64,000 bases of DNA from Celerinatantimonas sp. MCCC 1A17872 (lineage in GTDB: Bacteria; Pseudomonadota; Gammaproteobacteria; Enterobacterales; Celerinatantimonadaceae): NCBI RefSeq assembly GCF_046054195.1, contig NZ_JBEQCS010000008.1, forward strand, positions 14,090 to 78,089. Direction: 5' to 3'. A model generated the notes under the pieces. That model saw only the letters and a program-made list of their open reading frames with translations, searched no databases and had not been told where the DNA came from. How positions within the stretch are numbered: position 1 is the first letter of the stretch; the number at the start of each line of letters is the position of its first letter. Below, in pieces: positions 28,022 through 44,729 of this stretch. The translations under genes were made by a program, and so were the position numbers.

Positions 28022-28476
28022 ATTCAATAATGGCCAATTTCCTTGCCCATTATAATGCCAAGCATCTTTTGAAATCTGCGATTTGTTATAGCAGTGTTTA
28101 TATTCTTTAGTGGTTTGGTTATTCAGTGATTTATGAGATCGTTTTTTGGATGTTCTCGCAACCATCTATCTGTGATTTTCCTGACTTTATTCAGATTCCT
28201 GAATAAACAAAATCTAGTATTTCCGTTCGATGTTTCCGATTAAATTGTGTTCAAATCTTTAGTCTTAAGTTATCTCATTAAAAATGATAGACAAATCTAC
28301 AAATAACATATAAGTATGGTAAATACATGTATTCTATTTACATGTAAATGATTTCATTTGACTCATTAATACGATAGCGTGGAAAGGGGATACATCATGC
28401 TCTATGAATAGGTCATTGAGGTAATTGCAGAGGAAGTTCTTCCTCTGTGTAATAGTCTTTTGGCCAGAGCTTTACT

Positions 28477-28989
28477 TTGAACCAACTGAAGCTTCAAATA
28501 CCGTTTTTAGGTGAAGTGAAATCCTATATTGAGACGAATAAGGAAACGATCATGAAATGGCAAAAAGACGCACTAGAGATAGATACCAACACCGAGAGGT
28601 TAAATGTTTCTCTAATCCACCAGTTTCTATGTGAACAATCAAGATGGGCCAAAGGTATTCCTCTCGAAACGGTCGAAAAATCGCTATTACGCTCTATCAA
28701 CTTTGGCATCTATAGTCAGAGTCAACAAATTGGCTTTGCCAGATTGATCTCTGACTGTGCAACGTTTGCAAATTTAGTTGATGTTTTTGTGTTACCTGAC
28801 TACCGCCATCAAGGTGTTGCTACGTGGTTGCTGAACTGCATCGTTGAACACCCGGATTTGCAAGGGTTAAGACGATGGACTCTGGCTGCCACACCTGAAG
28901 GTAAAAACCTGTATCGAAAAATAGGGTTCACTGAACTTGCTAAACCCGAGATTTTTATGGAGCGTTTTTCCCCTTCAATTTATCGGTAA
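28477..28989 (+). CDS. GNAT-family N-acetyltransferase
   Basis: …VDVFVLPDYRHQGVATWLL… acetyl-CoA binding motif. Start may be the ATG at 28552. Confidence 0.7.
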   Translation: MNQLKLQIPFLGEVKSYIETNKETIMKWQKDALEIDTNTERLNVSLIHQFLCEQSRWAKGIPLETVEKSLLRSINFGIYSQSQQIGFARLISDCATFANLVDVFVLPDYRHQGVATWLLNCIVEHPDLQGLRRWTLAATPEGKNLYRKIGFTELAKPEIFMERFSPSIYR

Positions 28990-29270
28990 CGGAGCGTTTG
29001 AGATAGGTAACTTCTTCTCTAGTAAACTTTTGTGTAGTTCAAAACATTGAAGAAAGCCATTCATAACAAACCATGCTGCCCTCATGCATATAATTAACTG
29101 TGGCCAATTTTTGTTGACCACTACAATGAATCATCAATCCCAATTTTTGAAATGGCCGAGTAAGTTTTAATTTAATGAATTCTCTAATATAAATAATAGC
29201 TTATCGACTTAAATGATAGATGCTTATTGCAGTGCTGTTTCTATTAAAGAACGCCGCTTTATTACGGGAT

Positions 29271-30875
29271 TTAATTTGCCAATCTTTGCACTTGTTCCCA
29301 ACGAATTCCAAATTTAGCTAAATACTTTTGCAAACGAGATGAGTCGTTATGGCTGGCTTTGCGGGTGCGGCTCACATCGAATAAGGCTCGTCCAGCTGAT
29401 GCAAGTGAGCTTTGGTTCGCGCAGACACTTAGCACATATTCAAGTTGGTGGCGATCAAAGCTATCTAGCGATGCAAGCGTTTCATCGCTTAGTAACTGCA
29501 CCGCTAAGGATACTGATTTTGTAGTATTTGGTTGCCAGTCAGCGCTCAGGCGTTGGGTTTCTTCATGCACATCACTTAGCGCAATTCGTGACGAATCAGC
29601 CAATGTGCAAAGCCGAGTAATGGATGAGCCTAAATCGCGAAAATTTCCGCGCCAAGTCGCATTAGCTGAATAGGCAAAGTTAAGGTAGGCGGTGCGAGCT
29701 TCTTTATTAAAGCGAATTTTGTTGCCATGTTTTTGGCTAAATTTTTGTAATTCAAATTCAATATTGGCTTCAATATCTTCTTTTCTGTCTTTAAGCCCCG
29801 GCAGTTCATAACTCCACAGATTAATTCGGGCGAGTAAATCTTCGCGAAACTCACCCTTATTCACTGCTAATTTCAAGTCACGATTGGTTCCGGCAATTAG
29901 CTGAAAATTACTTTGAATTTCTTTATCGCTGCCCACTGGATGAAATGACTTATTCTCAATCGCTCGCAGCAACATTGCTTGCTCTTCAAGGCCTAATTCT
30001 CCAACCTCATCTAAAAATAATAAGCCATTATCAGCTGCTTTTAAGAAACCTCCGCGAGCAGTGGCAGCTCCTGTAAACGCACCTTTGGTGTGTCCGAATA
30101 ATGCCGCCATCGCGTTTTCACCTTTTAAGGTGGCGCAGTTTACGGTAATTAACTCGCCTGTAAGGGCGGCGCGTTTTTTCTTCAGTTGATAAATACGTCC
30201 AGCTAGCTGACTTTTCCCGGCACCCGTTGGCCCCGTGAGTAAAATAGGGGCGTCAGAGCGAATCGCCACTTTTTCGATCTGGGCAATCATGGTGTTAAAC
30301 GCCGCACTTCGAGTAGCAATCCCACCTTTTAGAAAGTCGGTGCCGTGTTCGTGTTCAGCATCAAAACGGGTTGCTAGCTGATCGTATTTAGATAGATCCA
30401 GATCGATGATCTGAGTCCGCCCTTTGGCTTTGTCTTCTTGTGAGCTATCTGGCGATGTTTGAATTAATCGCCCCGGGAAATGGTGGCTTTCAGTGAGCAA
30501 AAAGCAGCAAATCTGAGCCACATGAGTCCCAGTGGTGATATGAAACAGGTAGTCATTTCGGTCAATATCAAACTCCAGGACCGAGCAAAAGTCATATAAC
30601 TTGGCATAGACTTCACCAAAATCCCAAGGGTCTGCAAAATCAATGCAGTGCAGTGTGACTTTTGTTTGTGCTGAGATGGTCTCAATATCCACCGCAACAT
30701 TATTGGCTAGGTGCCAGCTTGCATCAGGATAAATCAGATGTAACTCGTCAATCATAAGCGAGTCTTGGCTGACCAGAGAAATATTGGGACGCCATCTTTG
30801 CCAGCGTTTTTTGCCTCGTCCAACCGAATCAAGTTGAGTCCCTAACAGACTCACCACCACCGTTTTTTTAACCAA
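29271..30875 (-). CDS. rtcR: Sigma-54-dependent RNA-repair transcriptional activator RtcR
   Basis: N-terminus MVKKTVVVSLLGTQLD…RWRPNISL parallels the E. coli RtcR CARF-like domain. Has an AAA+ sigma54 domain (GPTGAGKS…GAFTGA) and a C-terminal HTH. 534 aa versus 532 aa in E. coli. Confidence 0.85.
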   Translation of the reverse strand: MVKKTVVVSLLGTQLDSVGRGKKRWQRWRPNISLVSQDSLMIDELHLIYPDASWHLANNVAVDIETISAQTKVTLHCIDFADPWDFGEVYAKLYDFCSVLEFDIDRNDYLFHITTGTHVAQICCFLLTESHHFPGRLIQTSPDSSQEDKAKGRTQIIDLDLSKYDQLATRFDAEHEHGTDFLKGGIATRSAAFNTMIAQIEKVAIRSDAPILLTGPTGAGKSQLAGRIYQLKKKRAALTGELITVNCATLKGENAMAALFGHTKGAFTGAATARGGFLKAADNGLLFLDEVGELGLEEQAMLLRAIENKSFHPVGSDKEIQSNFQLIAGTNRDLKLAVNKGEFREDLLARINLWSYELPGLKDRKEDIEANIEFELQKFSQKHGNKIRFNKEARTAYLNFAYSANATWRGNFRDLGSSITRLCTLADSSRIALSDVHEETQRLSADWQPNTTKSVSLAVQLLSDETLASLDSFDRHQLEYVLSVCANQSSLASAGRALFDVSRTRKASHNDSSRLQKYLAKFGIRWEQVQRLAN

Positions 30876-31026
30876 TTCAATCTATCCAAATAGATATATT
30901 TATATCTTTATTTCATCATTTAACTGTTTTTTCTGCAATTAAAAAATAGCCTTAGAAATTAAATTTAAAAAAATAACCAAATAAAAACAAATTGTTAAAA
31001 ATAAATTTTAATTTTTCATCTGCGTT

Positions 31027-31042
31027 TGGCACGTCACTTGTA
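31027..31042 (+). promoter_or_regulatory. Candidate sigma-54 promoter for the SPFH-rtcB operon
   Basis: TGGCAC-N5-TTGTA, with GG at -24 and GT instead of GC at -12. Sits ~150 bp from the rtcR start and is preceded by an A/T-tract-rich region. Confidence 0.5.
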
Positions 31043-31134
31043 ATAGTTAAATTGTTGTAATTGTTCGGAGTGTTTCGAAATAGCACCCTGGTGCGATAGG
31101 CTCTGCCTAAATCGTATGCCAGATTACAGCGTGA

Positions 31135-31187
31135 TTTTAAGTCTCGGTCGGCGAGATGTTTGGGTTCGATTCCCAACTTAAAAACCA
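31135..31187 (+). ncRNA. tRNA-like minihelix element 1: acceptor stem, hairpin, canonical T-arm and ACCA
   Basis: TTTTAAG pairs with CTTAAAA. TCTCG-GTCGG-CGAGA hairpin. T-arm TTGGG-TTCGATT-CCCAA. Ends A-CCA. No D-arm or anticodon arm. Confidence 0.45.
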
Positions 31188-31257
31188 ATGGATAGCTCAA
31201 TGGTAGAGCAACGAACAGCAAATTCGTGTGTCGTGGGTTCAACTCCCACTCCGCTTA
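31188..31257 (+). ncRNA. tRNA-like element 2: D-arm, anticodon-like arm and T-arm, with an imperfect acceptor stem
   Basis: D-arm GCTC-AATGGTA-GAGC. Arm ACGAA-CAGCAAA-TTCGT. T-arm GTGGG-TTCAACT-CCCAC. Only 4-5 of 7 acceptor pairs form, and position 33 is not U, so this is not a functional tRNA. Confidence 0.45.
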
Positions 31258-31423
31258 ATAGAAAAATCGGTGTGAAAGTCGTTATTACCGCTGGTTGGAT
31301 ATCGCTTTTTAATAGCGGGTTATGGCAAGCAGGATAGCTCCCCATAACACAAGTTAATCAGCCATTTTCAATCAAGTCATTAACATTTCACACCATCCCG
31401 TTTGGGATAATGAGGAAAATAAG

Positions 31424-32578
31424 ATGTTTAAGAAAAAAATTACAGTTGCAGATAACGAACGAGTATTGGTCTTCAAAGCAAATCAGCTTTGTGAAGTGTT
31501 GATGCCTGGTGAATATAAATTCAAAGGCTTCTCTCAAGAACCAGAGCTTAAAACTTACGATATTGGCAAGCTCTATTTTGCCGAAGAAAATACGGTTCGT
31601 TGGTTTAAAAAATACCCAATTTTAGCTGAGCATATTGACCATTATTACGTCGAAGATAGCCAAACAGCGTTGCTGTATCTTGACGACCAACTTCAAGGGG
31701 TGGTGAGCCCTGGCTGCCATCTATATTTGTGGCGCGATGCTGGTGATATCCGTTTGGATATTATCGATATCAGCGAGCAATTGCAGTTGGATGAAGCGGT
31801 GTTAAATGCCATTCGTAAAGTGGGTGCAAATGCCGGGAGCAAGCTGTTAAAAAGCAGCCGTACTCAGGCTATTACGCCAGTTAAAGAGTTTTTAATTCCT
31901 CTGGAACATGCCGCTTTATTGTATGTAGATGGTTGTTATCAACGCCAGTTACCACCAGGGCGCTACGGCTTTTGGATGTTTCATAAAAATGTCGATGTGA
32001 AAACTATCGATGTGCGTAACAAAATGTTGGAAGTGTCGGGTCAGGAAATTTTAAGCAAAGATCGGGTTAGCTTGCGCATCAACCTCAACGCGAATGTGAA
32101 AGTGGTCGATGCTGAATTGGCGCTGTTAAGTACGGAAACCGTGATGACGTATGTCTATAACACTTTGCAGTTAGCTTTGCGTGAGGCGGTTGGTGTGAAG
32201 ACTCTCGATGAGTTGCTGCTTGATAAGCTCTATGTCAATGAAACCGTCAAAGAGCTGGTGGTGGAACCTCTCAAAGCGGTCGGTGTTGAGCTGTTAAGTG
32301 TCGGGATGAAAGACATCATTTTACCAGGTGATATGAAAGCGATTTTAAATCAGGTAGTTGAAGCGCAAAAAGCAGCCGAAGCGAATGTGATTAAACGCCG
32401 TGAAGAAACCGCGGCTACGCGTAGCTTGAACAATACCGCGAAGATGATGGAGAACAACCCAACGTTGCTGCGTCTTAAAGAGCTGGAGTCGCTAGAAAAA
32501 ATCTCCGAAAAAATCGAAAACCTGACCGTTTACGGTGGGTTAGAAGGGTTGATGAATGGCGTTGTAAAAATCGCCTAA
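31424..32578 (+). CDS. SPFH/band-7 (slipin-like) domain protein with a unique N-terminal domain
   Basis: The C-terminal half has SPFH-like β/α repeats and a coiled-coil (…EAQKAAEANVIKRREETAA…). First gene of the RtcR-controlled operon. Confidence 0.65.
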   Translation: MFKKKITVADNERVLVFKANQLCEVLMPGEYKFKGFSQEPELKTYDIGKLYFAEENTVRWFKKYPILAEHIDHYYVEDSQTALLYLDDQLQGVVSPGCHLYLWRDAGDIRLDIIDISEQLQLDEAVLNAIRKVGANAGSKLLKSSRTQAITPVKEFLIPLEHAALLYVDGCYQRQLPPGRYGFWMFHKNVDVKTIDVRNKMLEVSGQEILSKDRVSLRINLNANVKVVDAELALLSTETVMTYVYNTLQLALREAVGVKTLDELLLDKLYVNETVKELVVEPLKAVGVELLSVGMKDIILPGDMKAILNQVVEAQKAAEANVIKRREETAATRSLNNTAKMMENNPTLLRLKELESLEKISEKIENLTVYGGLEGLMNGVVKIA

Positions 32579-32625
32579 AGTAAGTTTAAGAAACGGTGGC
32601 CTTTGGCCGCCGCTAAGGAATAAAG

Positions 32626-33852
32626 ATGTGTGAACAGCATTACAACATATTAACTGGCGAGAATCGCGTGGCGATTAAAGCGTGGACCAAAGGCGTGCCG
32701 TTTGAACCTGATGCGTTAGCGCAGCTGAGTAATATTGCCGCGATGGATATTGTTCATTCGCATATTGCTGTGATGCCAGATGTGCATGTGGGCAAAGGGG
32801 CAACGATTGGCAGTGTTATTCCATCGACTAAAGCCATCATCCCATCAGCGGTGGGAGTGGATATTGGGTGTGGTATGGTTGCGTTAAAAACCAGTTTAAC
32901 GGCCAGCCAGCTGCCTGATAATTTATCAGCTATTCGTAGTGCATTTGAAGCTGCTGTGCCACATGGTAGAACCTCAGGACGAGGTAAAAATGACCGTGGG
33001 TCTTGGGGTAATATCCCTGATCTTGTGGCTCTTGAATGGGTAAAGTTAGAAGCTCAGTTTGAGCGTATCTGTGAAAAACACCCGTCGATTCGAAGCAGCA
33101 ACAATGTTCACCATTTGGGTACGATGGGCACCGGAAATCACTTTTTAGAGCTGTGCGTGGACGAAAATGAACATATTTGGCTCATGCTGCACTCCGGCAG
33201 TCGTGGGGTCGGTAACCGGATTGGTTCATATTTTATTCAACTGGCTCGTAAAGAGATGGAACGTCATCAGAGCCAATTGCCAGATATGGATTTAGCGTAT
33301 CTGCAAGAGGGAAGCGAATATTTTGATGATTATGTTGAAGCGGTGCAGTGGGCACAGGATTTCGCTGCTAAAAATCGTGAAATCATGATGATCAATGCTC
33401 TCAATGCGCTGCGCCAACAGATCCCAGTTAAGTTTGAAACGGCGAGTATCGCAGTGAATTGTCACCATAACTACGTATCGCGGGAACACCATTTTGGTAA
33501 AGACTGCTATGTGACTCGAAAAGGTGCGGTGCGCGCTGAAAAAGGCGAGTTAGGGATTATTCCCGGTAGCATGGGCGCAAAATCGTTTATCGTGCGGGGG
33601 CTTGGTAATGCACAAAGCTTTAATAGCTGTAGCCATGGTGCCGGTCGAGTGATGTCTCGGACCAAAGCTAAAAAAGTCTTTAGCATAAAAGATCAGATTG
33701 CGGCGACCCAAGGGGTTGAGTGTCGTAAAGATGCGGCTGTAATTGATGAGATCCCGCATGCTTATAAAGATATTGAGCAGGTGATGGCGGCACAAAAAGA
33801 CTTAGTAGAAGTTGTGCATACTCTTAAACAGGTCGTATGCGTTAAAGGATGA
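32626..33852 (+). CDS. rtcB: RNA-splicing ligase RtcB
   Basis: 408 aa. Metal- and GMP-binding motifs HNYVSREHHFGK…, NSCSHGAGR and the His-Gly ladder. Confidence 0.9.
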   Translation: MCEQHYNILTGENRVAIKAWTKGVPFEPDALAQLSNIAAMDIVHSHIAVMPDVHVGKGATIGSVIPSTKAIIPSAVGVDIGCGMVALKTSLTASQLPDNLSAIRSAFEAAVPHGRTSGRGKNDRGSWGNIPDLVALEWVKLEAQFERICEKHPSIRSSNNVHHLGTMGTGNHFLELCVDENEHIWLMLHSGSRGVGNRIGSYFIQLARKEMERHQSQLPDMDLAYLQEGSEYFDDYVEAVQWAQDFAAKNREIMMINALNALRQQIPVKFETASIAVNCHHNYVSREHHFGKDCYVTRKGAVRAEKGELGIIPGSMGAKSFIVRGLGNAQSFNSCSHGAGRVMSRTKAKKVFSIKDQIAATQGVECRKDAAVIDEIPHAYKDIEQVMAAQKDLVEVVHTLKQVVCVKG

Positions 33853-33947
33853 GAGTAGTCAATATAAGTGGTGGCGAGTTGGCAAGCCATTAGTCGGTAA
33901 TGAAAGTTGAGTTGTTGGCAATTCGCCATGATGATAGGGGTTGTATT

Positions 33948-34760
33948 ATGAAAGTTGTCACAAGCCAAGTGTTGCAAAATGCGGTTGCGGAGAATGTACG
34001 CCAAGAAATTGTTGCGCGCATCGCTCAAGCAGAAGCAGAGCATCAGGTTAAAGTCTTGTATGCTGTTGAATCAGGTAGCCGAGCCTGGGGGTTTGCATCA
34101 ACCAATAGCGATTATGATGTGCGATTTATCTATGCGCACGAAGCTGACTGGTATCTGAGCATGGATGTTGAGGACCAGCGTGATGTGATTGAATATCCGA
34201 TTGTCGATGAGATAGACATCAATGGGTGGGATGTGCGAAAAGCGCTTCGATTATTTCGCAAGTCAAATCCAGCGATGGTCGAGTGGTTAAGTTCGGCTCT
34301 GATTTATGCTGATGATGGCGTCTTCGCTCGTGAATTGAGGCCACTTCTTAAAACGAGTTATTCGTTAAATAAGGGAATATTTCATTATTTAAATATGGCG
34401 CGAACAAACTATCGCGGTTATCTCAAAAGCCAGGAAGTACGTGTTAAAAAGTACTTTTATGTATTGCGCCCGCTACTGGCAATTCGTTGGTTGCTGAAAT
34501 ATCAAAGCGTTGCGCCCATTGAGTTCGAAAAACTATTAACGCTGCTTGATGAAGCGGATGTTCGAGAGCAGGTTGAGCGCTTATTAGTGCTCAAGCGTAA
34601 TGGACAAGAGCTCGATAGTGGGCCGCAGATTGTGCTCATCAATCAGTTTATTGAACAAGAGCTAAATCGCTATGAAACGCTCAAGCCACTACCTAATGAC
34701 TCGATGGCTGACAGCGCGACACTCAATCGAGTTTTTAGATGTGTGCTCAACAGCCTCTAG
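33948..34760 (+). CDS. RtcB-associated Pol-beta-superfamily nucleotidyltransferase (RlaP-type)
   Basis: GS…WG…SDYD nucleotidyltransferase motif (VESGSRAWGFASTNSDYDVRFIY). Confidence 0.7.
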   Translation: MKVVTSQVLQNAVAENVRQEIVARIAQAEAEHQVKVLYAVESGSRAWGFASTNSDYDVRFIYAHEADWYLSMDVEDQRDVIEYPIVDEIDINGWDVRKALRLFRKSNPAMVEWLSSALIYADDGVFARELRPLLKTSYSLNKGIFHYLNMARTNYRGYLKSQEVRVKKYFYVLRPLLAIRWLLKYQSVAPIEFEKLLTLLDEADVREQVERLLVLKRNGQELDSGPQIVLINQFIEQELNRYETLKPLPNDSMADSATLNRVFRCVLNSL

Positions 34761-34895
34761 CTTTTCTGATATGTTTGGCTGCTCAAACGGGCAGCCCTTT
34801 TTTAGTTGGGGCGTTGGTTAAGCCCTAATCGGTGAGTTAGATGAAGGTTGGCAGACGTTGTGATAAATCCATATACACCCAGTTCAATCGCCGCT

Positions 34896-35453
34896 ATGTT
34901 AGATAGCTATCAGTATCTAGTGATTATCGATATTGAACATACCTGCACGGCTGATGGTTCGATTGTGGCTGATGAGCGCGAAATTATTGAAATCGGCGCG
35001 GTCATTGTCGATTCTCAAAATTTTGCACCGGTTGCGACGTTTGGCCGTTTTGTAAAGCCCGTACAGCATCCGATATTGGATGATTTTTGTGTTACGTTAA
35101 CGGGTATTCAACGCGCTGATGTTGCCAGTGGTGAAGGTTTCAAAGAGGTTCTTAGTGCTTTTAACCAATGGCGAAAAACTTATCGAGATTATTTGCTCTG
35201 TTCCTGGGGCAGTTATGATCAGGTGCAACTTGATTTAGACTGCCGCTATTATGCTCTGGCGCCTATTTCTGCTGAGCCTTTTTTCAATCTCAAAAAAGCC
35301 TTTGCTAAAGTGCAGCGGCTCAAATCGCAAGTCGGAATGAAGCGCGCCATGGCGCATGTTGGCCTAGCTCAACAAGGCGCTCATCACCGAGCGTTAAGCG
35401 ATGCGCAAAATATTGCTCGATTGCTGCCGTTTATATTTTTAAAAGATAAGTAG
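34896..35453 (+). CDS. DEDDh 3'-5' exonuclease (KapD/ERI-1-like)
   Basis: Exo I motif LVIIDIEHTC, then …EIIEIGAV… and a C-terminal H…D. Start uncertain; alternative TTG at 34848 or GTG at 34857. Confidence 0.65.
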   Translation: MLDSYQYLVIIDIEHTCTADGSIVADEREIIEIGAVIVDSQNFAPVATFGRFVKPVQHPILDDFCVTLTGIQRADVASGEGFKEVLSAFNQWRKTYRDYLLCSWGSYDQVQLDLDCRYYALAPISAEPFFNLKKAFAKVQRLKSQVGMKRAMAHVGLAQQGAHHRALSDAQNIARLLPFIFLKDK

Positions 35454-35686
35454 CCCCTAAAGATAGATTGCGGGTGGTCAGTTAAGTGTTATCGCCCATG
35501 AAATCGAATTTTTGGCCGATATCAGCTTAAATTCCCTCAAACTCATATCATGGTATGATTCAATTAATTTAAAAGCCAAAATCATCTGATTTAACGCCTT
35601 TGCTCACTTAAATTGAGTAAAAGTGCTTTTTTGTGTCTTTTTCCACATCTGCTCGGAATTATCAGAACAAATTAGGAGTAAACAAA

Positions 35687-36673
35687 ATGAGTTTAAGCCA
35701 AAGTAAATTGGCCATTATTGGGATGGGCCATGTTGGTTGTGCGTTAGCTCACCATCTAACTATCGGCAACTTTTGTGATGAACTTGTTCTGATAAATCGG
35801 CGCAAAGAAAAAGCTTGGGCTGAGGCTGAAGATTTAAAACACTCCTTAGGTTTTTCTGAAAGTCGGATGCGCATTTATGCCGGTGATTACACCGATTGCG
35901 GCGATGCCGATATCGTCGTGCTAGCCGTGGCCGCGCCTTATCAAGAGGGCAATACTCGCCTTGATATGCTCGATAAAGCCAGCCAGATTGTCAGTGAAAT
36001 CGTGCCACAAGTCATGCAAAGTGGCTTTGCGGGGATATTCATTGTGATTACCAACCCAGTTGATGCGATTAGCTACTTGGTCCATAAGATTTCTGGTATC
36101 CCTTCACATCGGGTCATCGGCACAGGCACCTCACTTGATTCAGCTCGGCTGAGATATTTTTTGGCAGAAACGATGGATGTCGACCCACGCAGTGTCGAAG
36201 CCCTATGCATGGGCGAGCATGGCGATTCTCAGATGATCCCATGGAGTCAGGTGACAGTTGGCGCTAAAAGCTTTACTCAAATTTTGCACGATAATCCAGA
36301 ACGACTCGAAGGCATTGATATTCACAAGGTTCAGCAAGAAATTAGTCAAATCGCCTATCAGGTGGTGAAGGCTAAAAGTGCAACCGATTATGGTATCGCT
36401 GCTGTTGCGGCGCGTATGATTAAAGCAATTGTTCGAGATGGCAATATTGTGATGCCTGCCTCTGTGATGTTAAACGGTGAGTATGCACAAAATGATGTGT
36501 ATGCCGGCGTCCCGGCAGTGATTACCCGAAATGGGATTAAAGAGTTGGTGACCTATCATCTAACTGATTCTGAAATTAGCGCATTTAAACAGTCAATCGC
36601 TGTGTTAAAAGATGCCAACCGCCAGATGCTAAGTGCACTTGGCTTGGAAACTCATGCGGGAAAATCAGAGTAA
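35687..36673 (+). CDS. ldh: L-lactate dehydrogenase
   Basis: NAD-binding KLAIIGMGHVG and the LDH signature MGEHGDSQ. AGGAGTA RBS 7 nt before the ATG at 35687. Confidence 0.75.
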   Translation: MSLSQSKLAIIGMGHVGCALAHHLTIGNFCDELVLINRRKEKAWAEAEDLKHSLGFSESRMRIYAGDYTDCGDADIVVLAVAAPYQEGNTRLDMLDKASQIVSEIVPQVMQSGFAGIFIVITNPVDAISYLVHKISGIPSHRVIGTGTSLDSARLRYFLAETMDVDPRSVEALCMGEHGDSQMIPWSQVTVGAKSFTQILHDNPERLEGIDIHKVQQEISQIAYQVVKAKSATDYGIAAVAARMIKAIVRDGNIVMPASVMLNGEYAQNDVYAGVPAVITRNGIKELVTYHLTDSEISAFKQSIAVLKDANRQMLSALGLETHAGKSE

Positions 36674-36772
36674 TTAGCGTTTTTCGAGCAGTGTTTAGTT
36701 GCCGATAAGTCAGAATAAATTAAACGCTAACTGCTCGATATATTGGTTTAATATGGCCATCAATCCAGCGCA

Positions 36773-37798
36773 TCAATGGGATAAAAATTGAGTGATAGCG
36801 CTAATGATTTGCTGGTGAATCAGCATACGCTGTGCCATTGAATCTGGGCAAAGCTTTTGCAGCGCTGGAATCTTCTTTTTACTCATTTTGCAGCGGTTAA
36901 ACCCATCAAACAGACTCGCTTGGGGAATATTAAGTTGGGTGCTGTTGGGTTGGGTCATGGTTATCTGCTTTTTACCTAAAGTGATCACAAGCGCTTTGAG
37001 GTAAGTCTGATTGGCTTTTGCGCTAAGAACACCAAGGTATTCAGGTGCAATAGCCACAACGGAGTGAATCCGTTTGTCTAAATATGATTCCAAGAGCTTG
37101 GTTTGATTGGCTTCATTAAGCGTGATTTGGTGGGATTTAAACCACTGACAATCAATTTTTTTTGCTGTGTTCCCATCACATAAATGCTGATAAGCCGAGC
37201 GGTTAATCGCCGAACCTGCCAGCATCAATCCAGTGGTTGCGCCAAAGGCAAAGCCAACAAAATGAATTTTTGTGGAATCGATGTGTTTGCGCCATTTATT
37301 ATCGGCTAATAATGCTGTTAAAACGGTTTGGGCAAGCTGTGGTCGCTGCCAGATAAAATTGACCGCATCCTTGGGACTCATTGCTCTGGGTGGATTAATT
37401 TCAGCTACGATAAATCCTTTTGTTGCAAGAGCTGAACTGAGCCATGCACCTGAGTTATCCGCACTTCGAAGCCCACCATGAAGCAGAATAACGAGTGGAT
37501 GAAGGCCGGCTTTGACAGTTTGGCTAGCGACGGCTTTTTCTCCTTGAAAGAGTGCATTTGAGCCGATTTCAATTGTTGTTGGGGGCGCTATATATTTTGC
37601 GCCATCGGGGTACCAAAGCGTCACGCTGCTTTTAAAAGCATCTTTGTCTAAATGATATTGCACCGTTGCAGGCAGAGCCGCCGATGCTTCCATCGCGTGC
37701 GCTGCAAAAATAGTAAGTGAGAGTGTAACGACTGCGAAAATACGATAAATAAAGAGTGATAATCCATATCTTGTCATAAATAAGTCCCAGAGATGCAC
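36773..37798 (-). CDS. Secreted alpha/beta-hydrolase-fold protein (dienelactone hydrolase/PAF-AH-like)
   Basis: N-terminal signal peptide. LLHGGLRSADN. The nucleophile-elbow position reads GFAFG, with Ala where Ser/Cys is expected. Confidence 0.5.
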   Translation of the reverse strand: MHLWDLFMTRYGLSLFIYRIFAVVTLSLTIFAAHAMEASAALPATVQYHLDKDAFKSSVTLWYPDGAKYIAPPTTIEIGSNALFQGEKAVASQTVKAGLHPLVILLHGGLRSADNSGAWLSSALATKGFIVAEINPPRAMSPKDAVNFIWQRPQLAQTVLTALLADNKWRKHIDSTKIHFVGFAFGATTGLMLAGSAINRSAYQHLCDGNTAKKIDCQWFKSHQITLNEANQTKLLESYLDKRIHSVVAIAPEYLGVLSAKANQTYLKALVITLGKKQITMTQPNSTQLNIPQASLFDGFNRCKMSKKKIPALQKLCPDSMAQRMLIHQQIISAITQFLSH

Positions 37799-37952
37799 TT
37801 TGCTAAAGGCCTACCAAAAGTGAAATTACAATATCCTGTAAAGCTTAAGATAGCGAGCAAATAACTTAGTATGATTATTGGGTTCTGATTAGTATTGTAA
37901 TGAGCTAATTGATATGAGTGCTGAATAGAAAAATTCGTAACACGGAGGTTTA

Positions 37953-38699
37953 ATGACTAAATACGCTGTGCTCAGTGATATTCACAGTAATATTTATGCA
38001 CTGCAAGCTGTTGTGGCTGATGCAAGAGAGCAGAATGTTAATGGATTTATTAACTTAGGCGATATCCTTTATGGCCCAATTGCGCCTCGAGCAACATATG
38101 ATTATTTACAAGAGTTAGGGGCAATTACGATTTCTGGCAATCAAGACCGACAGATATATTGCTCTAGTGCCGATGAAATCGCGAATAATCCAACAATGCA
38201 ATTTATTTTGGCTGATCTTGGGCCGCAGCCACTCGCGTGGATGAAGGCTTTGCCTTTTGATTTGCACATCAACGAGCAAATTTATGCTTGTCATGGGACG
38301 CCGCAAAGTGATTTAGTCTATCTATTAGAAAATGTCTGTGAAGGTTTTCCAAAGCTTAAGTCGGATGGTGAAATTCTTGCTCAGTTAAATGGTATTTCTT
38401 CAGCGCTTATTTTATGTGGACATACGCATATTCCCCGTTGTGTCGAACTCTCAACTGGGCAGCTTGTGATAAATCCAGGCAGCGTTGGCTTGCCAGCTTA
38501 TCGAGATGATGATCCTTGTCATCATGCTATGGAAACATTTTCATCGCGAGCATCGTATGTGATTATCGAGCAGCAATTAGAGCAAAACTGGCAGGTTGCC
38601 TTTCGCAAAGTCAGCTACGATGCTTCCCTTGCCGCTCAAAAAGCCCAAAACCAAGGCCGGCTAGATTGGTACCAAGCGTTGACCACAGGGCGCTGCTAA
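37953..38699 (+). CDS. Metallophosphoesterase (calcineurin-like)
   Basis: YAVLSDIHSN…GDILYGP…GHTH motifs. Confidence 0.7.
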   Translation: MTKYAVLSDIHSNIYALQAVVADAREQNVNGFINLGDILYGPIAPRATYDYLQELGAITISGNQDRQIYCSSADEIANNPTMQFILADLGPQPLAWMKALPFDLHINEQIYACHGTPQSDLVYLLENVCEGFPKLKSDGEILAQLNGISSALILCGHTHIPRCVELSTGQLVINPGSVGLPAYRDDDPCHHAMETFSSRASYVIIEQQLEQNWQVAFRKVSYDASLAAQKAQNQGRLDWYQALTTGRC

Positions 38700-38868
38700 T
38701 CATTGATTGGCCATAAAGGTGTATTTTTTTGTCGCGCGCTAAAGTCATTTGGCAATATTTTCTCTGACTTGTACAAATTCGGCTGTTCATCGTATTTAGA
38801 GCCGTGTGCTAGCTTAATTCCATGTCGTTTTTATCTTTTAAACGAGCAAGTATGGAATAAAGAGCGCT

Positions 38869-39996
38869 ATGGCAACTGCATTTTTTTCTATTCCAGATAT
38901 CTATTTCGGCGATCATTCGCTTCGCTTCTTAGCCAAACTATCTCAGCATAAAGTCGCTATTGTGACGGATGCTTTTATGGCTTCTTCGGGTAAAACTCAA
39001 GAATTAATTCAAGCAATGCCTGATGCCCGTGTTGCGGTATTTTCTGAGGTGACACCGGACCCGAGTGTTGATGTTTTAAAAGCGGGCGTGAAGCAATTGC
39101 AACATTTTCATCCAGATACAATCATTGCGCTGGGCGGTGGCTCATCACTTGATGCGGCAAAAGGCATCAAAGTGACTCTAGAAGATTATGATCAAAGCCA
39201 GAAAATTGAATTAATTGCGATACCGACAACCAGTGGTTCTGGTTCAGAAGTAACTTCGTATGCGATTATCTCAGACCCTGCAAATGGGCATAAATACCCA
39301 CTCATTTCCAAAGAGTTAGTCCCTGATTGCGCAATTCTCGATCCGCAATTAGTTATGAGTGTGCCAACGCATGTCTCGATGGATACGGGCATGGATGTGT
39401 TAACCCACGCCATTGAAGCCATTGTATCAACCGGTGCTAATGACTTTAGTGATGCACTTGCGCAAAAGGCTATCGCTTTGACCACCATGAATTTACCACT
39501 GATTTTTCAAAACCCACAAGATATCGTTGCGCGTGAACATATGCACAACGCGTCATGCATGGCGGGGATGGCATTTAATAGTGCCGGCCTTGGACTGGTG
39601 CATGCGATGGCCCACGCGATTGGCGGAATGTTACACATTGCCCATGGCCGAGCTAATGCCATGTTATTGGCGTTAGTCATTGAGTTTAATGCCAAAGATA
39701 ACAATGCGAAAACCCTCGCAAATTATCATCGTTGTGCCCAGATGATGGGGATTAAAGAAGACAGTGATACAGCGGCCATTGCTGCAATGGTTCGCATGAT
39801 TCGTTTCTTTAATCAACGCTTTGGTATTGCTAATACCTTGATCGAAATGGGCAAAAATAGCGCTGAGCTTGAAGCGTTGCGCCCATCTATCGTGGCGGCT
39901 GCGCAAAATGACCGCTGCCTTGCTAGCAATCCTCGTTCAGTTGGTGAGAGCGAGCTTAGCGAGTTGTTTAATCGCGTTGCCGGGCTATCTGGATAA
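38869..39996 (+). CDS. Iron-containing alcohol dehydrogenase (EutG/PduQ-like)
   Basis: ALGGGSSLDAAKG NAD motif and an Fe-binding His cluster (HAMAHAIGG). First gene of the BMC operon. Confidence 0.85.
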   Translation: MATAFFSIPDIYFGDHSLRFLAKLSQHKVAIVTDAFMASSGKTQELIQAMPDARVAVFSEVTPDPSVDVLKAGVKQLQHFHPDTIIALGGGSSLDAAKGIKVTLEDYDQSQKIELIAIPTTSGSGSEVTSYAIISDPANGHKYPLISKELVPDCAILDPQLVMSVPTHVSMDTGMDVLTHAIEAIVSTGANDFSDALAQKAIALTTMNLPLIFQNPQDIVAREHMHNASCMAGMAFNSAGLGLVHAMAHAIGGMLHIAHGRANAMLLALVIEFNAKDNNAKTLANYHRCAQMMGIKEDSDTAAIAAMVRMIRFFNQRFGIANTLIEMGKNSAELEALRPSIVAAAQNDRCLASNPRSVGESELSELFNRVAGLSG

Positions 39997-40101
39997 GATT
40001 GTCTTGCGCTTTCAAGCTGGTAAAAAAAGTGCAGCGTAAAGGCAAAAACAATAAATCCAAACCTCATAGTCTAATAGTATCGATTGTTTTGGGGAGCAGT
40101 T

Positions 40102-40794
40102 ATGAATGATGTCCAAGTGCAGGCCGCTCTAATTACCCGGCAAATTATGCAGGAGTTAGTAAAAAAAGAGGCCGTTGCCGTTAACTCTTGTACCCAATTA
40201 TCAACAAAACTTGCGGTTCCTGTTGGAATATCGAATCGGCATGTGCATTTAAGCCGCGAAGATATGGACGTCTTATTTGGCAGTGGCGTTGAGCTAACTC
40301 GTTATAAAGCGGTCAAGCAGCCCGGCCAATATGCAGCTGATCAGACTGTGGTTTTGCGCGGCCCAAAAGGGGAGATTCAACGAGTCCGTATTCTTGGGCC
40401 GTTAAGAAGCGCCACTCAGATAGAGATTTCAATTGCAGATAGCTTCACCTTGGGAGTTAAAGCGCCACTTAGGATGTCTGGAGAGTTAGATAATTCCGCT
40501 GGTATTGAGATAGTGGGGCCTCGGGGCGTGGTGAAAAAAGATCATGGTGCAATCGTTGCCTGGCGACATATCCATATTTCACCTCAGGATGCTGAGCATT
40601 TTCAGCTCAGTGATGGTATGCAAATTGATGTTCAAACCCAAGGTGCTAGAGGCGGAATCTTGCAGCATGTGGTCGTTCGCGTGAGCTCTGATGCGGTGCT
40701 TGAAATGCATCTTGATGTTGAAGAAGCCAATGCACTAGGGCTTAAAAATGGTGATTTAGTTTATGGCTTAAGCAAGGCTTGCTCCCATGGCTAA
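40102..40794 (+). CDS. pduL: Phosphate propanoyl/acetyl-transferase PduL
   Basis: VPVGISNRHVHLS… and a second …AWRHIHISPQD repeat, characteristic of PduL. Confidence 0.85.
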   Translation: MNDVQVQAALITRQIMQELVKKEAVAVNSCTQLSTKLAVPVGISNRHVHLSREDMDVLFGSGVELTRYKAVKQPGQYAADQTVVLRGPKGEIQRVRILGPLRSATQIEISIADSFTLGVKAPLRMSGELDNSAGIEIVGPRGVVKKDHGAIVAWRHIHISPQDAEHFQLSDGMQIDVQTQGARGGILQHVVVRVSSDAVLEMHLDVEEANALGLKNGDLVYGLSKACSHG

Positions 40795-41623
40795 AGCCCA
40801 TACGCGAAGGCTTAAAGAGTTGGCAGCGCTGATGCGCCATCATGCGTGTCATCGTCGCCACGGGCCTTATAAAGTTGGAGTCGATTTAGGAACGGCGAAT
40901 ATTGCGCTAGTCGTGGTTGATTACGCCAATCAACCGGTGACAGGCATTAGTTATCCATCAACGGTTGTGAAAGATGGTGTTGTGGTGGATTACCTAAAAG
41001 CGAGCGAAGTCGTATCTATGCTCAAAGCTCAGTTAGAAGAGCGCCTTGGTGAGCCTTTGAAATATGCTGCCACAGCGATTCCTCCGGGAATTTCCTCAGG
41101 TGACACGAAAGTAATTGTTAACGTAGTTGAAGCGGCTGGATTTACGGTTACCAATGTGATGGATGAGCCAGTTGCAGCAGCAGTTGCCTTAAACATCACC
41201 GATGGTGCCGTCGTAGATGTTGGTGGTGGCACAACTGGGATGAGTGTGTTTTGCAATAACCAAGTTATCTTTAGCGCCGATGAGCCAACTGGCGGCACAC
41301 ATATGACATTGGTCGTTGCTGGCGCTTTGAATCTTCAATACGAGCAAGCAGAAGCGTTAAAAATTGCAAAAGAGAATGAAGCGCAAGTCTTTGAGCTGAT
41401 TCGGCCAGTTGTTGAAAAAATGGCGACGTTAGTTTGTGGATGGCTGGGGCAGTATCCAGTTAAAAAATTATGGCTGGTGGGCGGGGCAAGTAGTTTCTCG
41501 CAGTTTGCCGATGTATTTAGTGGTGTGACGAATGTTCCCAGTGTTGTGGCCCCTGAGCCGCTATTAGTAACGCCATTGGGAATTGCTATCAAGGCAAAAG
41601 AGGTGGCATCTGTTCATTTATGA
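40787..41623 (+). CDS. eutJ: EutJ-like actin-fold ATPase/chaperone
   Basis: KVGVDLGTANIALVVVD… and …DVGGGTTGMSV motifs. 8-bp overlap with pduL. Confidence 0.8.
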   Translation: MAKAHTRRLKELAALMRHHACHRRHGPYKVGVDLGTANIALVVVDYANQPVTGISYPSTVVKDGVVVDYLKASEVVSMLKAQLEERLGEPLKYAATAIPPGISSGDTKVIVNVVEAAGFTVTNVMDEPVAAAVALNITDGAVVDVGGGTTGMSVFCNNQVIFSADEPTGGTHMTLVVAGALNLQYEQAEALKIAKENEAQVFELIRPVVEKMATLVCGWLGQYPVKKLWLVGGASSFSQFADVFSGVTNVPSVVAPEPLLVTPLGIAIKAKEVASVHL

Positions 41624-42309
41624 AAAATCCATCGTTTGAGCACAAACTTGATGCAATGATTTTTGCAATCCTTGAGCAAAAACGCTTAAAAGCCAAGTTG
41701 CTGCGAGTGGTTATCACCGGTTCTGATATGCGCTCATTAGAGCGGATCTTTGCCTGTATCGATGCGTTATATCATCGTGGTTACGCCATTGCGATATCGT
41801 TTTCATATTCAGCTTTTAACTCGATGCTCGCCCAAGTTTGTCAGCGTTGGATAGAGGTGAAAAAGCTTAATATCACAACAGATAACTGTGGCCCTCATTT
41901 ACCAAAAGATGACTATTACGGCGTTTTTTTCCCGGCATTGTCGATGAATAGCTTGGCTAAAATAGCTCAGTGTCTGAATGATAATATTGCCTGTGAATGG
42001 GCATTTGATGCGCTTGCATGCCGGCGCCCTGTCTATGTCACACTCAGCGTCGATGAGGACGAAAGTCATTTTTCCAGCACAATGCGCCAATGCCTGAGCG
42101 ATTACGTCAAAGCTCTTAAAGGCCTTGGGGTACACGTGCTCACCCAAGCTTGCCCAGCGGCTCATAACCGCCGACAGCTAATCACTGTTGCCGACGTTCG
42201 TAAGATGCAAAAGCTGACATCTTTGTCTGTCGAGGCTGATGCGCTAATTACCCCAGCGGCACGGGATGAAATCAATCGTTTACAACTTGTTCTGAATAGA
42301 AAAAGTTAG
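41620..42309 (+). CDS. Hypothetical microcompartment-associated protein, possibly PduM-like
   Basis: Occupies the PduM position (after PduL, before the vertex protein). C-terminal …LITPAARDEINRLQLVL resembles PduM …VVTAMARDAANARNIQLI. Confidence 0.4.
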   Translation: MKNPSFEHKLDAMIFAILEQKRLKAKLLRVVITGSDMRSLERIFACIDALYHRGYAIAISFSYSAFNSMLAQVCQRWIEVKKLNITTDNCGPHLPKDDYYGVFFPALSMNSLAKIAQCLNDNIACEWAFDALACRRPVYVTLSVDEDESHFSSTMRQCLSDYVKALKGLGVHVLTQACPAAHNRRQLITVADVRKMQKLTSLSVEADALITPAARDEINRLQLVLNRKS

Positions 42310-42318
42310 GAGGAACAT

Positions 42319-42591
42319 ATGTATCTGGCCAAAGTGACTGGTGCAATTGTATCAACCACCAAGCATGAATCTTTAATTGGAACCAAGTTATTGGTTGTGA
42401 GCCGCATGGATGCGAATCATCAGATAACTGGCTATCCAGAAATTGCTGTTGATTGCGTTGGTGCGGGCAATGGTGAAGTGGTGATCGTTGCTGTGGGTAG
42501 TTCGGCTCGTAAAAGTCGCGAGCAGGTAAACTCAGTGATTGATGCTGCTGTGGTGGGAATTGTTGACTCTCTCGAAGTGAATGATGATTAG
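42319..42591 (+). CDS. eutN: BMC vertex protein (EutN/PduN/CcmL, BMC-P)
   Basis: 90 aa. MYLAKVTGAIVSTTKHESLIGTKLLVV… is typical of BMC-P. Confidence 0.85.
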   Translation: MYLAKVTGAIVSTTKHESLIGTKLLVVSRMDANHQITGYPEIAVDCVGAGNGEVVIVAVGSSARKSREQVNSVIDAAVVGIVDSLEVNDD

Positions 42592-42624
42592 GCGATAAAA
42601 ACTCGATGATTTAAGGCCACTATT

Positions 42625-43143
42625 ATGAGCGTCAATCAAACCCGCGAAAGTCGAAGTCTTGATCATCTCATTGATCAGGCAATTGACCAATACGCTTATG
42701 AGCCAGTGACAACGCTAAGCTTAAACGATGCGATGACACTGGGGCGATTGGCCCACGAACAAGCGCATCAAATAGGTGTTGCAATCGTCTTTAGCATGCT
42801 CGATTCAATGGGCTATCAACGTTACTTTTTCAGCATGGATAATGCACTGCTAGTCAGCCACCAATTGGCGTATCGCAAGGCTTGGAGCGCGGTTGCTTTA
42901 AAAATGCCAACGCATGAGCTAGCAAGCCTTTGTCAACCCGGGCAAAGCTTGTATGGGCTGTTGAATCACCCAGATATCTGTTGTGTTGGGGGCGGGCTAC
43001 CTTGTTGGCATAAAGGACAACTGTTAGGTGCAATTGGCATTAGTGGCGGAAGTGTCGAGCAGGATATGTCGGTTGCCAGCAATACTTTGTTTAAATTTAG
43101 CCAGTCTCGTTATTTACTGACGTCGTCACCATTGGCGGTGTAA
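42625..43143 (+). CDS. DUF336 (GlcG / PduO C-terminal-like) haem-binding family protein
   Basis: …GGGLP…GQLLGAIGISGGSVEQD signature. Confidence 0.7.
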   Translation: MSVNQTRESRSLDHLIDQAIDQYAYEPVTTLSLNDAMTLGRLAHEQAHQIGVAIVFSMLDSMGYQRYFFSMDNALLVSHQLAYRKAWSAVALKMPTHELASLCQPGQSLYGLLNHPDICCVGGGLPCWHKGQLLGAIGISGGSVEQDMSVASNTLFKFSQSRYLLTSSPLAV

Positions 43144-43164
43144 GCCAAATCAGCCGAGGTTGTT

Positions 43165-44373: not shown

Positions 44374-44729
44374 TTATTAGCTCTACCAAGGCATTTATGT
44401 GGGTTATCTTATCCATTTCATCGCTATTTATATCTGCTGTTTTTAGTTTTTATCCCCCTCGTTGGCAGCGTCTGCGTTCGCTTGTTTTCTCTTTTGAATA
44501 AACCTGCAATTTATTGCATCTATCTAAGCGATGACCGCAAAAGAATCCCCCTAGGGGGCAAAACATTTTTCGGTAATCTTCATATGATGAAGATGCTAGG
44601 GAGGGTTGATCTTTGGTAGTTGCAAAACTAATCACAAAAGGTCCACTCCTCTAGTTAAAACGCATCAAGGTGAGCCGGGAGCGCTTAAGCCTTTTTGCTT
44701 TAATTATCATCGAAATTGCCGAGGTAGAT

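Follow-up and report, generated by a model that had tools for sequence, protein, structure and literature searches.

A probable RNA-repair operon of the Band-7/tRNA-like RNA class under RtcR and sigma-54 control, without a local RtcA, in Celerinatantimonas

Systems that combine a Band-7 protein, a band-7-associated tRNA-like RNA (b7a-tRNA), RtcB and RlaP have been predicted by comparative genomics (Burroughs & Aravind 2016, as summarised in 10.1101/312249). As far as that summary describes the class, its features are also those of the locus presented here, namely RtcB adjoining Band-7, a tRNA-like ncRNA directly upstream of Band-7, RlaP in the operon and RtcR divergent from it. The rtc locus of Pseudomonas aeruginosa contains an SPFH gene as well (PaFlo8, in PA14), and the rtc locus of P. 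aeruginosa and P. fluorescens resembles ours in being RtcR-regulated, in having RtcB and RlaP in one operon and in the SPFH gene embedded there; deletion of paFlo8 gave no phenotype in standard assays, among which RNA damage was not included. More distant likenesses are seen in rsr-yrlBA-rtcBA of Salmonella, which shares the RtcR/sigma-54 control and has a candidate RNA-binding scaffold and tRNA-mimicking ncRNA(s) upstream of RtcB, and in rtcBA of E. coli, which shares RtcR, a sigma-54 promoter and the 408-aa form of RtcB.

Our analysis of a 64-kb window (the whole stretch of DNA studied, from Celerinatantimonas sp. MCCC 1A17872) indicates, with a probability of roughly 0.8, that Table 1 describes an RNA-repair operon under RtcR and sigma-54 control which belongs to the class with Band-7 and a tRNA-like RNA, and that the exonuclease gene behind it is a separate neighbour. 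The conserved unit comprises rtcR, the sigma-54 promoter, the tRNA-like leader and the genes for the SPFH protein, RtcB and RlaP, and its end is the intrinsic terminator; categorically it is nothing new, being a local copy of an RNA-repair cluster already described. An earlier note on this DNA had outlined an RtcR-linked module joining RtcB, an SPFH protein, the RlaP nucleotidyltransferase and a tRNA-like leader, and this outline is supported: the open reading frames across 29271-35453 were recovered where it had placed them, and profile search confirmed all five families that it had named (RtcR, SPFH/Band-7, RtcB, RlaP and DEDDh exonuclease). It had also regarded the link between SPFH and RNA repair as unusual; that link is not new, having been reported in 2016 (Burroughs & Aravind) and again for PaFlo8 of P. 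aeruginosa.

Table 1. Features of the rtc locus and its downstream neighbour (positions in the window).
Feature	Position	Strand	Evidence or remark
rtcR, divergent from the operon	29271..30875	-	CARF-type RtcR N-domain, sigma-54 AAA+ activator domain, lid/HTH
Candidate sigma-54 -24/-12 promoter TGGCACGTCACTTGTA	31027..31042	+	1 mismatch to TGGCAC-N5-TTGCW
Structured leader at the 5' end of the predicted operon transcript, ~370 nt	31053..31423	+	start placed from the promoter position
Conserved leader hairpin	31088..31122	+	RNAalifold consensus (window/L001/L002), two compensatory pairs
Reduced "mini" tRNA-like element	31135..31183	+	T-arm match, Y-shaped fold
Full cloverleaf tRNA-like element (band-7-associated tRNA type)	31186..31257	+	Rfam tRNA 49.9 bits; ARAGORN "Cys GCA"
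Soluble stomatin-like SPFH/Band-7 protein ("slipin family")	31424..32578	+	Band_7 1.4e-21, aa 159-328
RtcB, 3'-phosphate/5'-OH RNA ligase, E. coli-type 408-aa form	32626..33852	+	Pfam RtcB (PF01139) 5.4e-125
RlaP, Pol-beta-fold nucleotidyltransferase, last gene of the conserved operon	33900..34760	+	PF10127 1.1e-86, 291 bits
Intrinsic terminator GGCUGCUC-AAAC-GGGCAGCC, then CUUUUUU	34777..34805	+	terminator scan (8 bp, 6 GC pairs); fold
ERI1/3'hExo-like DEDDh exonuclease	34896..35453	+	RNase_T (PF00929) 9e-22; listed ORF start TTG 34848

An identical gene order is found in Shewanella, Alteromonas mediterranea and Vibrio quintilis, where RlaP is again last and is followed by convergent genes, and for the operon proteins the nearest named relatives come from Shewanella (78-82% at the amino-acid level), whereas the earlier note had looked to Vibrionaceae for comparison, a choice that this finding does not support. 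A closer relative, 97% identical and represented by contigs of a single sequencing run (SRR31968090), has the four rtc-module proteins at 98-99% identity to those of the window. Among 41 SPFH loci with full flanks the partners are RtcB at 29, RtcR at 19, RlaP at 16 and RtcA at 13, and the exonuclease occurs at none. PADLOC, whose models cover neither SPFH nor RtcB nor RlaP, returned a match by its generic Cas-associated DEDDh model alone, on the exonuclease.

The regulator carries the RtcR N-domain (PF06956, 6.5e-77, aa 3-185) and the AAA+ domain Sigma54_activat (PF00158, 1.5e-48) in Pfam, and scores 766.8 bits with the NCBIfam equivalog RNA_repair_RtcR, for which the cut-off is 650. As for the candidate sigma-54 promoter ahead of the repair genes, 43 sigma-54-like motifs with at most two mismatches were found over the window and 43 were expected, which is not above chance, so the call rests on positional conservation: in each of the 11 rtcR-linked loci examined, 149-178 nt separate the motif from the start of rtcR, and TGGCACGTCACTTGTA shows no change when aligned with Shewanella. 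It is from sequence that we infer the promoter, the transcript start, the processing of the tRNA-like RNA and the efficiency of termination. The putative leader has a minimum free energy of -109.6 kcal/mol (z = -3.41, equalled by 0 of 100 shuffles) and shares about 80% DNA identity with the Shewanella leaders. Its mini element consists of a 7-bp acceptor-like stem (UUUUAAG/CUUAAAA), a single short hairpin and a T-arm (UUGGGUUCGAUUCCCAA); in Shewanella it shows compensatory changes from G-C to A-U, and its acceptor sequence is that of the full tRNA-like element of V. quintilis.

The SPFH gene adjoins RtcB, lying 47 nt upstream of it, and its product is built of two N-terminal beta-unit repeats, then the SPFH domain and finally a long helix at the C-terminus, the order of SPFH domain and oligomerisation helix being that of the slipin family. 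The repeats stand where a membrane anchor would be expected; neither a transmembrane segment nor an N-terminal anchor was found in the protein, in which no 19-residue stretch exceeds a Kyte-Doolittle mean of 1.18. Pfam gave no match for the N-terminus on its own, which is made up of the first SPFH beta-unit in duplicate. The description of this part as a unique 180-aa domain has to be abandoned, as the region covers about 155 aa and is conserved across a widespread "slipin" family: every one of the 18 genome loci has it at full length, as do most of the 80 metagenome loci, and a search with it matched 217 representatives of 50%-identity clusters.

In RtcB the metal-binding and GMP-histidine motifs (DIGCG, GNHF, HSGSRG, HHNY, SHGAGR) are kept, as seen by alignment to a solved RtcB, and RlaP, which follows after a gap of 47 nt, covers positions 2-248 of the 249 in PF10127 and has the GS...DxD catalytic motif GSRAWGFASTNSDYD; an exact-sequence look-up of the RlaP protein returned no match, and the PDB held no sequence match to it. 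As its homologues show, RtcB seals breaks with 3'-P or 2',3'>P to 5'-OH ends, and a 3'-P or 2',3'-cyclic-P is required for this. RlaP adds one or two NMP to an RNA 3'-OH, an activity demonstrated only with the enzymes of P. fluorescens and P. aeruginosa, and the mismatch between its 3'-OH product and the substrate of RtcB was flagged in the RlaP paper itself (PMC12776372); the product is chemically incompatible with RtcB. The comparative data sharpen this problem of end chemistry; a variant without RtcA encodes no end-modifying enzyme at all. The RtcA cyclase of rtc operons of the E. coli/Salmonella type is missing here, and the earlier remark that rtcA is absent locally holds for all 64 kb of the window, where tblastn searches with two RtcA sequences gave nothing better than E=1.3. 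This is a minority variant: of 18 fully flanked loci with RtcR and RtcB, 5 lack RtcA. Versions without RtcA also occur at L003, L025 and L046. In Salmonella RtcA contributes to induction, and an operon lacking it may therefore be regulated differently, by analogy.

The tRNA-like leader of the earlier note was borne out by Rfam and ARAGORN, which both call a tRNA in the element at 31186-31257, located on the same strand as the SPFH gene and 166 nt upstream of it. These calls, and the fact that SPFH proteins are usually membrane-associated, would suit a mere coincidence, in which an ordinary tRNA-Cys gene lies next to a generic membrane-scaffold gene having no tie to RNA repair; however, the comparative data effectively refute this reading, which retains almost no credibility. 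The element has A at position 33 instead of U, two mismatches in the acceptor stem and no encoded CCA, its "anticodon" is different in every relative and often not of three nucleotides, the SPFH protein has no transmembrane segment, and the linkage of tRNA-like element, SPFH and RtcB recurs across Gammaproteobacteria and Planctomycetota. A genuine tRNA-Cys was thus rejected on A33, the lack of CCA, the weak acceptor stem and the non-conserved anticodon, and the element, judged by its sequence features, is not a decoding tRNA. In 16 of 18 genome loci and 55 of 74 loci overall, the 900 nt ahead of the SPFH gene contain a tRNA-like element on the same strand (undetected in 19 of the 74), and the cloverleaf homologues of 20 loci show compensatory changes in 14 of 20 pairs. 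The "anticodon" reads Cys, Lys and Asn across the window and two Shewanella, and 37 different ones were counted, including tta and some of two or four nucleotides. It is this contrast, of highly conserved D- and T-arms with anticodon loops that are hypervariable even among close relatives, together with the one to four tandem copies at other loci, that speaks for another role of the leader RNAs, as decoys for anticodon nucleases whose cleavage would yield 5' halves with cyclic phosphate that act back on the CARF domain of RtcR, or which would shield real tRNAs by competition, the SPFH protein then stabilising or sequestering the RNAs and not scaffolding enzymes. [quoted passage not shown]

The other alternative concerns the extent of the operon, namely five genes in which the DEDDh exonuclease replaces RtcA and, with RlaP and RtcB, trims, extends and seals tRNA 3' ends, as the earlier note had it. 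The exonuclease gene shares its strand with RlaP and follows it at 87-135 nt, an adjacency kept in the 97%-identical relative; its product belongs by similarity to the ERI1-like 3'-5' exoribonucleases (3e-19 to the PDB entry for ERI1, 1w0h) with its D-E-D-H-D residues aligned and intact (DIE, SYD, H...D), and a sigma-70 scan of the gap behind RlaP gave no convincing promoter. The listed TTG start is not conserved in the 97%-identical relative, and by sequence the ATG at 34896 is the likely one. Against a five-gene operon stands the strong intrinsic terminator in this gap, whose hairpin is kept in the same relative with one U-G pair there being U-A, although read-through into the exonuclease gene may occur. 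Moreover, the exonuclease is absent at 101 of 101 related SPFH/Rtc loci, its homologues adjoin BREX, kinases or VWA/MerR genes and never Rtc genes, and in the relative it has lost 31 internal aa from the stretch that separates the motifs Exo II and Exo III, although all four proteins of the rtc module are nearly unchanged there. Hydrolysis by DEDDh exonucleases leaves 3'-OH ends, and the trim, add and seal scheme has a problem of chemistry because the ends given by both DEDDh trimming and RlaP addition cannot be sealed by RtcB. The exonuclease as a substitute for RtcA was rejected on this chemistry and on the lack of co-conservation, a five-gene operon is very improbable, and membership of the exonuclease in the module, as formerly claimed, does not stand; it is probably an independent and poorly conserved neighbour outside it. 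A bolder combination, in which sacrificial tRNA-like baits switch on RtcR through the cyclic-phosphate 5' halves left by their cleavage and a soluble, vault-like SPFH cage, made of the duplicated beta-units, the SPFH core and a cap helix, holds nicked tRNA-shaped RNAs for RtcB and RlaP, the ERI1-like RNase possibly extending the module in this RtcA-less lineage, is improbable in our view; were it true, the module would be a self-priming organelle for sensing and repairing RNA damage.

Returning to the four-gene RNA-repair operon under RtcR, a working can be proposed by analogy to Salmonella and E. coli, in which the CARF-type domain of RtcR would sense damaged tRNA (5' halves with 2',3'-cyclic phosphate), and RtcR would then oligomerise and activate the sigma-54 promoter at 31027. 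The predicted transcript would contain the leader with one reduced and one full tRNA-like element, followed by SPFH, RtcB and RlaP, and would stop at the terminator. The SPFH protein, having two extra beta-units, a core and a long oligomerisation helix without an anchor, would most likely form a ring or cage, in keeping with its SPFH fold and its oligomeric relatives; with the tRNA-like RNA this might serve the repair enzymes as a scaffold or cofactor, a role parallel to that proposed for Ro60/Y RNA in rsr-yrlBA-rtcBA. Without RtcA, the ends used for induction and ligation would have to bear cyclic phosphate already, unless the genome has an rtcA at another place.

The locus is thus a clean and compact example, with four genes and a structured leader, whose most intriguing parts are the soluble SPFH protein and the tRNA-like RNA that goes with it, and the comparative data offer several handles for experimental work on them: the conserved spacing of the sigma-54 promoter, the tandem tRNA-likes with free-running anticodon loops, the SPFH N-terminus made of duplicated SPFH beta-units and the recurrence of the RtcA-less variant. 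Set beside the Band-7/b7a-tRNA class, so far as the secondary description of that class goes, it differs in that of its first tRNA-like element only an acceptor/T-arm mini-element and one hairpin are left, and beside the Alteromonas-type operons it lacks both RtcA and the CCA-adding/HD gene. The Pseudomonas rtc operon (RtcB-RlaP-RtcA) keeps RtcA and has another gene order, and PaFlo8 is likened to the SPFH protein here by its position in the locus. In rsr-yrlBA-rtcBA of Salmonella the scaffold is Ro60/TROVE and not SPFH, with RtcA present and RlaP absent, while rtcBA of E. coli has RtcA and no SPFH, tRNA-like leader or RlaP. Finally, compared with the cages of stomatin, HflKC and flotillin and with the major vault protein, the SPFH protein here lacks a membrane anchor and has no more than two beta-units, its likeness to the major vault protein being a lead at the level of the fold only.

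As for the gene content of the locus, domain searches confirmed every family assignment made in the earlier note, and its ORF coordinates proved correct. RtcR matched Sigma54_activat (1.5e-48) and scored 767 bits on the NCBIfam RtcR equivalog (cut-off 650), while the catalytic motifs are intact in RtcB, in RlaP (GS...DxD) and in the exonuclease, whose nearest match is the eukaryotic ERI1/3'hExo (3e-19). The reported absence of rtcA also holds locally, since tblastn of the 64-kb window with two RtcA proteins from related loci found no match and the gap between RtcB and RlaP is just 47 nt.

Features of the RNA-repair locus and its 3' flank (window positions)
Feature	Position	Strand	Remark
RtcR	29271-30875	-	PF06956, 6.5e-77, all 183 profile positions matched
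Candidate sigma-54 -24/-12 motif TGGCACGTCACTTGTA	31027-31042	+	151 nt from rtcR start
Reduced tRNA-like element	31135-31183		directly upstream of full element; acceptor-like stem, one hairpin, T-arm
Full tRNA-like element	31186-31257		in leader
SPFH protein	31424-32578	+	Band_7/SPFH domain spans aa 159-328
RtcB	32626-33852	+	RtcB family match, 5.4e-125
RlaP	33900-34760	+	PF10127, 1.1e-86
Terminator hairpin, predicted	34777-34805	+	8 bp, 6 GC, then CUUUUUU; 3' of RlaP
DEDDh exonuclease	34848-35453 as listed	+	RNase_T/DEDDh match

Among 41 SPFH loci flanked on each side by 5 kb or more and surveyed by tblastn, RtcB is found at 29, RtcR at 19, RlaP at 16 and RtcA at 13, and the commonest pattern is RtcR, RtcB, RtcA and RlaP together (12 loci). 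The set of the window, namely RtcR, RtcB and RlaP without RtcA, occurs at 3 of the 41, and named RtcA-less examples are Vibrio quintilis (L025) and the loci L046 and L003; over all patterns RtcA is missing from 5 of the 18 fully flanked loci having both RtcR and RtcB. In some Salmonella backgrounds RtcA aids induction. Some Alteromonas-type loci differ in having, between RtcA and RlaP, a further gene of CCA-adding/HD type that encodes about 420 aa. At L033 (10457-11713) Pfam assigns it PolyA_pol, PolyA_pol_RNAbd and HD domains as in CCA-adding enzymes, which suggests that these variants repair tRNA 3' ends, while at L038 and L040 the gene was recognised only from where the ORF lies, its size and its similar N-terminal sequence. 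Two further neighbourhoods were observed. In V. quintilis a second RNA-repair cluster (L025:1-3027; RtcB with an RF-1/PrfH-like gene, then RNA_ligase with an HD/AAA_33 kinase-like gene) lies 2-7 kb upstream of rtcR and forms an RNA-repair island, and in Alteromonas mediterranea RlaP is directly followed by a convergent CBASS-type defence system (L024:11669-15173; SAVED, JAB, E1-like, CD-NTase).

The exonuclease, which the earlier note had placed in a five-gene operon, is on the comparative evidence a neighbour of the module and not a member of it. A predicted terminator stands between it and RlaP, and RlaP is likewise the final gene, with convergent genes beyond, in Shewanella, A. mediterranea and V. 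quintilis. It was found at none of 101 SPFH-family loci (tblastn of the window proteins; 18 genome and 80 metagenome loci), and its homologues adjoin BREX, protein kinase or VWA/MerR genes, with no Rtc genes beside them in the contexts examined. In a 97%-identical metagenomic relative (two overlapping contigs, run SRR31968090) the adjacency is kept and RtcR, SPFH, RtcB and RlaP share 98-99% identity with their window counterparts; the exonuclease there has a 31-aa in-frame deletion in the Exo II-Exo III interval (window 35263-35355; L019:116-580), which suggests that the gene is dispensable or decaying in this relative. Moreover, the relative does not share the listed TTG start, and the gene likely begins at ATG 34896, by which the gap after RlaP grows to 135 nt. 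The trimming step of the five-gene model also suits the ligase poorly: DEDDh hydrolysis and RlaP addition both yield 3'-OH ends, while RtcB requires 3'-P or 2',3'>P. Those who characterised RlaP also regard its pairing with RtcB as unresolved. Read-through of the terminator is possible, and for this reason the five-gene model keeps a slim chance.

Past the exonuclease, the region 35633-44400 encodes L-lactate dehydrogenase, a metallophosphoesterase, an Fe-alcohol dehydrogenase and a microcompartment-type cluster (PTAC, EutJ-like, EutN, acetate kinase); it is syntenic with the relative (L019) and has no relation to RNA repair. Just ahead of rtcR in window coordinates, an insertion of 1,096 nt (28037-29131) sets the window apart from the relative (L023); it carries a GNAT acetyltransferase ORF (28477-28989).

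At the other boundary, sigma-54-type motifs show no window-wide enrichment; the candidate motif is invariant in the comparison with Shewanella, and each of the 11 rtcR-linked relatives examined has it 149-178 nt from rtcR. The leader, probably about 370 nt long, has strong predicted structure (z = -3.4) and about 80% identity to Shewanella leaders, and its reduced element is kept in Shewanella with compensatory changes. The full element was ruled out as a decoding tRNA: its position 33 is A, its acceptor stem contains two mismatches, CCA is missing, and its "anticodon", Cys in the window, is Lys and Asn in two Shewanella relatives. At 16 of 18 genome loci and 55 of all 74, the 900 nt upstream of the SPFH gene contain same-strand tRNA-like elements, in 1-4 tandem copies. 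An alignment of 20 elements supports the cloverleaf, 14 of whose 20 pairs show compensatory changes; the D- and T-arms hardly vary, while the anticodon loops differ in sequence and length. Over the wider set of loci, 37 different "anticodons" occur (tta ten times, some of 2 or 4 nt). At the distant SPFH loci L059, L061, L071 and L094, arrays of 2-4 upstream tRNA(-like) genes, either true tRNAs or mimics of the b7a type, bear ordinary anticodons (His gtg, Lys ctt, Trp cca).

The N-terminus of the SPFH protein had been regarded as unique, a view that can no longer be kept. The protein is matched over its full length (residues 1-384) in Shewanella (80%), Alteromonas, Pseudoalteromonas, Bacterioplanoides, Ketobacter, Lysobacterales and Planctomycetota, where NCBI names such homologues "slipin family protein"; its N-terminal 158 aa alone match 217 cluster representatives (50% identity), often with 2-5 repeats, and its segments aa ~4-46 and ~71-120 each duplicate the first SPFH-domain beta-unit, aa 153-200 (profile-profile, hhalign 86-97%). 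In its AlphaFold model (pLDDT 79) the SPFH core is accompanied by two beta-rich units and a helix of 60 residues. Elsewhere, the 2,559-aa P0170 is a giant repeat protein of this unit, with 33 matching stretches, and a 171-aa ORF of V. quintilis (L025:8730-9245), between a 534-aa SPFH gene and RtcB, has no Pfam match and by eye only resembles stand-alone beta-unit repeats.

The best-supported account is one of damage sensing, scaffolding and repair in five steps. RNA damage would produce tRNA halves with cyclic-phosphate ends; the known RtcR ligand is tRNA 5' halves with a terminal cyclic phosphate, and the CARF domain, as in homologues, would bind them and switch on sigma-54 transcription. The leader would then give rise to the tRNA-like RNA or RNAs, which together with an SPFH oligomer may act as cofactor or scaffold, while RtcB, again judging from homologues, would seal the breaks and RlaP would patch 3' ends short of nucleotides. 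Pseudomonas RlaP extends RNA 3'-OH ends by 1-2 NMP, with a preference for mimics of nicked tRNA (PMC12776372). That the hypervariable tRNA-likes serve instead as bait or sensor is a live alternative, albeit an unlikely one.

The abstract of Burroughs and Aravind's 2016 work reportedly lists among potential scaffolding cofactors SPFH/Band-7 modules with a novel tRNA-like molecule. Burroughs & Aravind 2016, cited in bioRxiv 10.1101/312249 and in PMC12776372, is the source of the name RlaP and of the link of RtcB to a Band-7 protein and a "band-7-associated tRNA"; the connection between SPFH proteins and RNA repair, which had seemed unusual, was already described. In P. aeruginosa PA14 the SPFH gene PaFlo8 lies within the rtc locus, and strains deleted for it showed no phenotype in general assays. 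The locus of the window is a new member that belongs to a known, computationally described class, of which the RtcA-less four-gene version offers a compact test case for an SPFH/tRNA-like pair so far described computationally.
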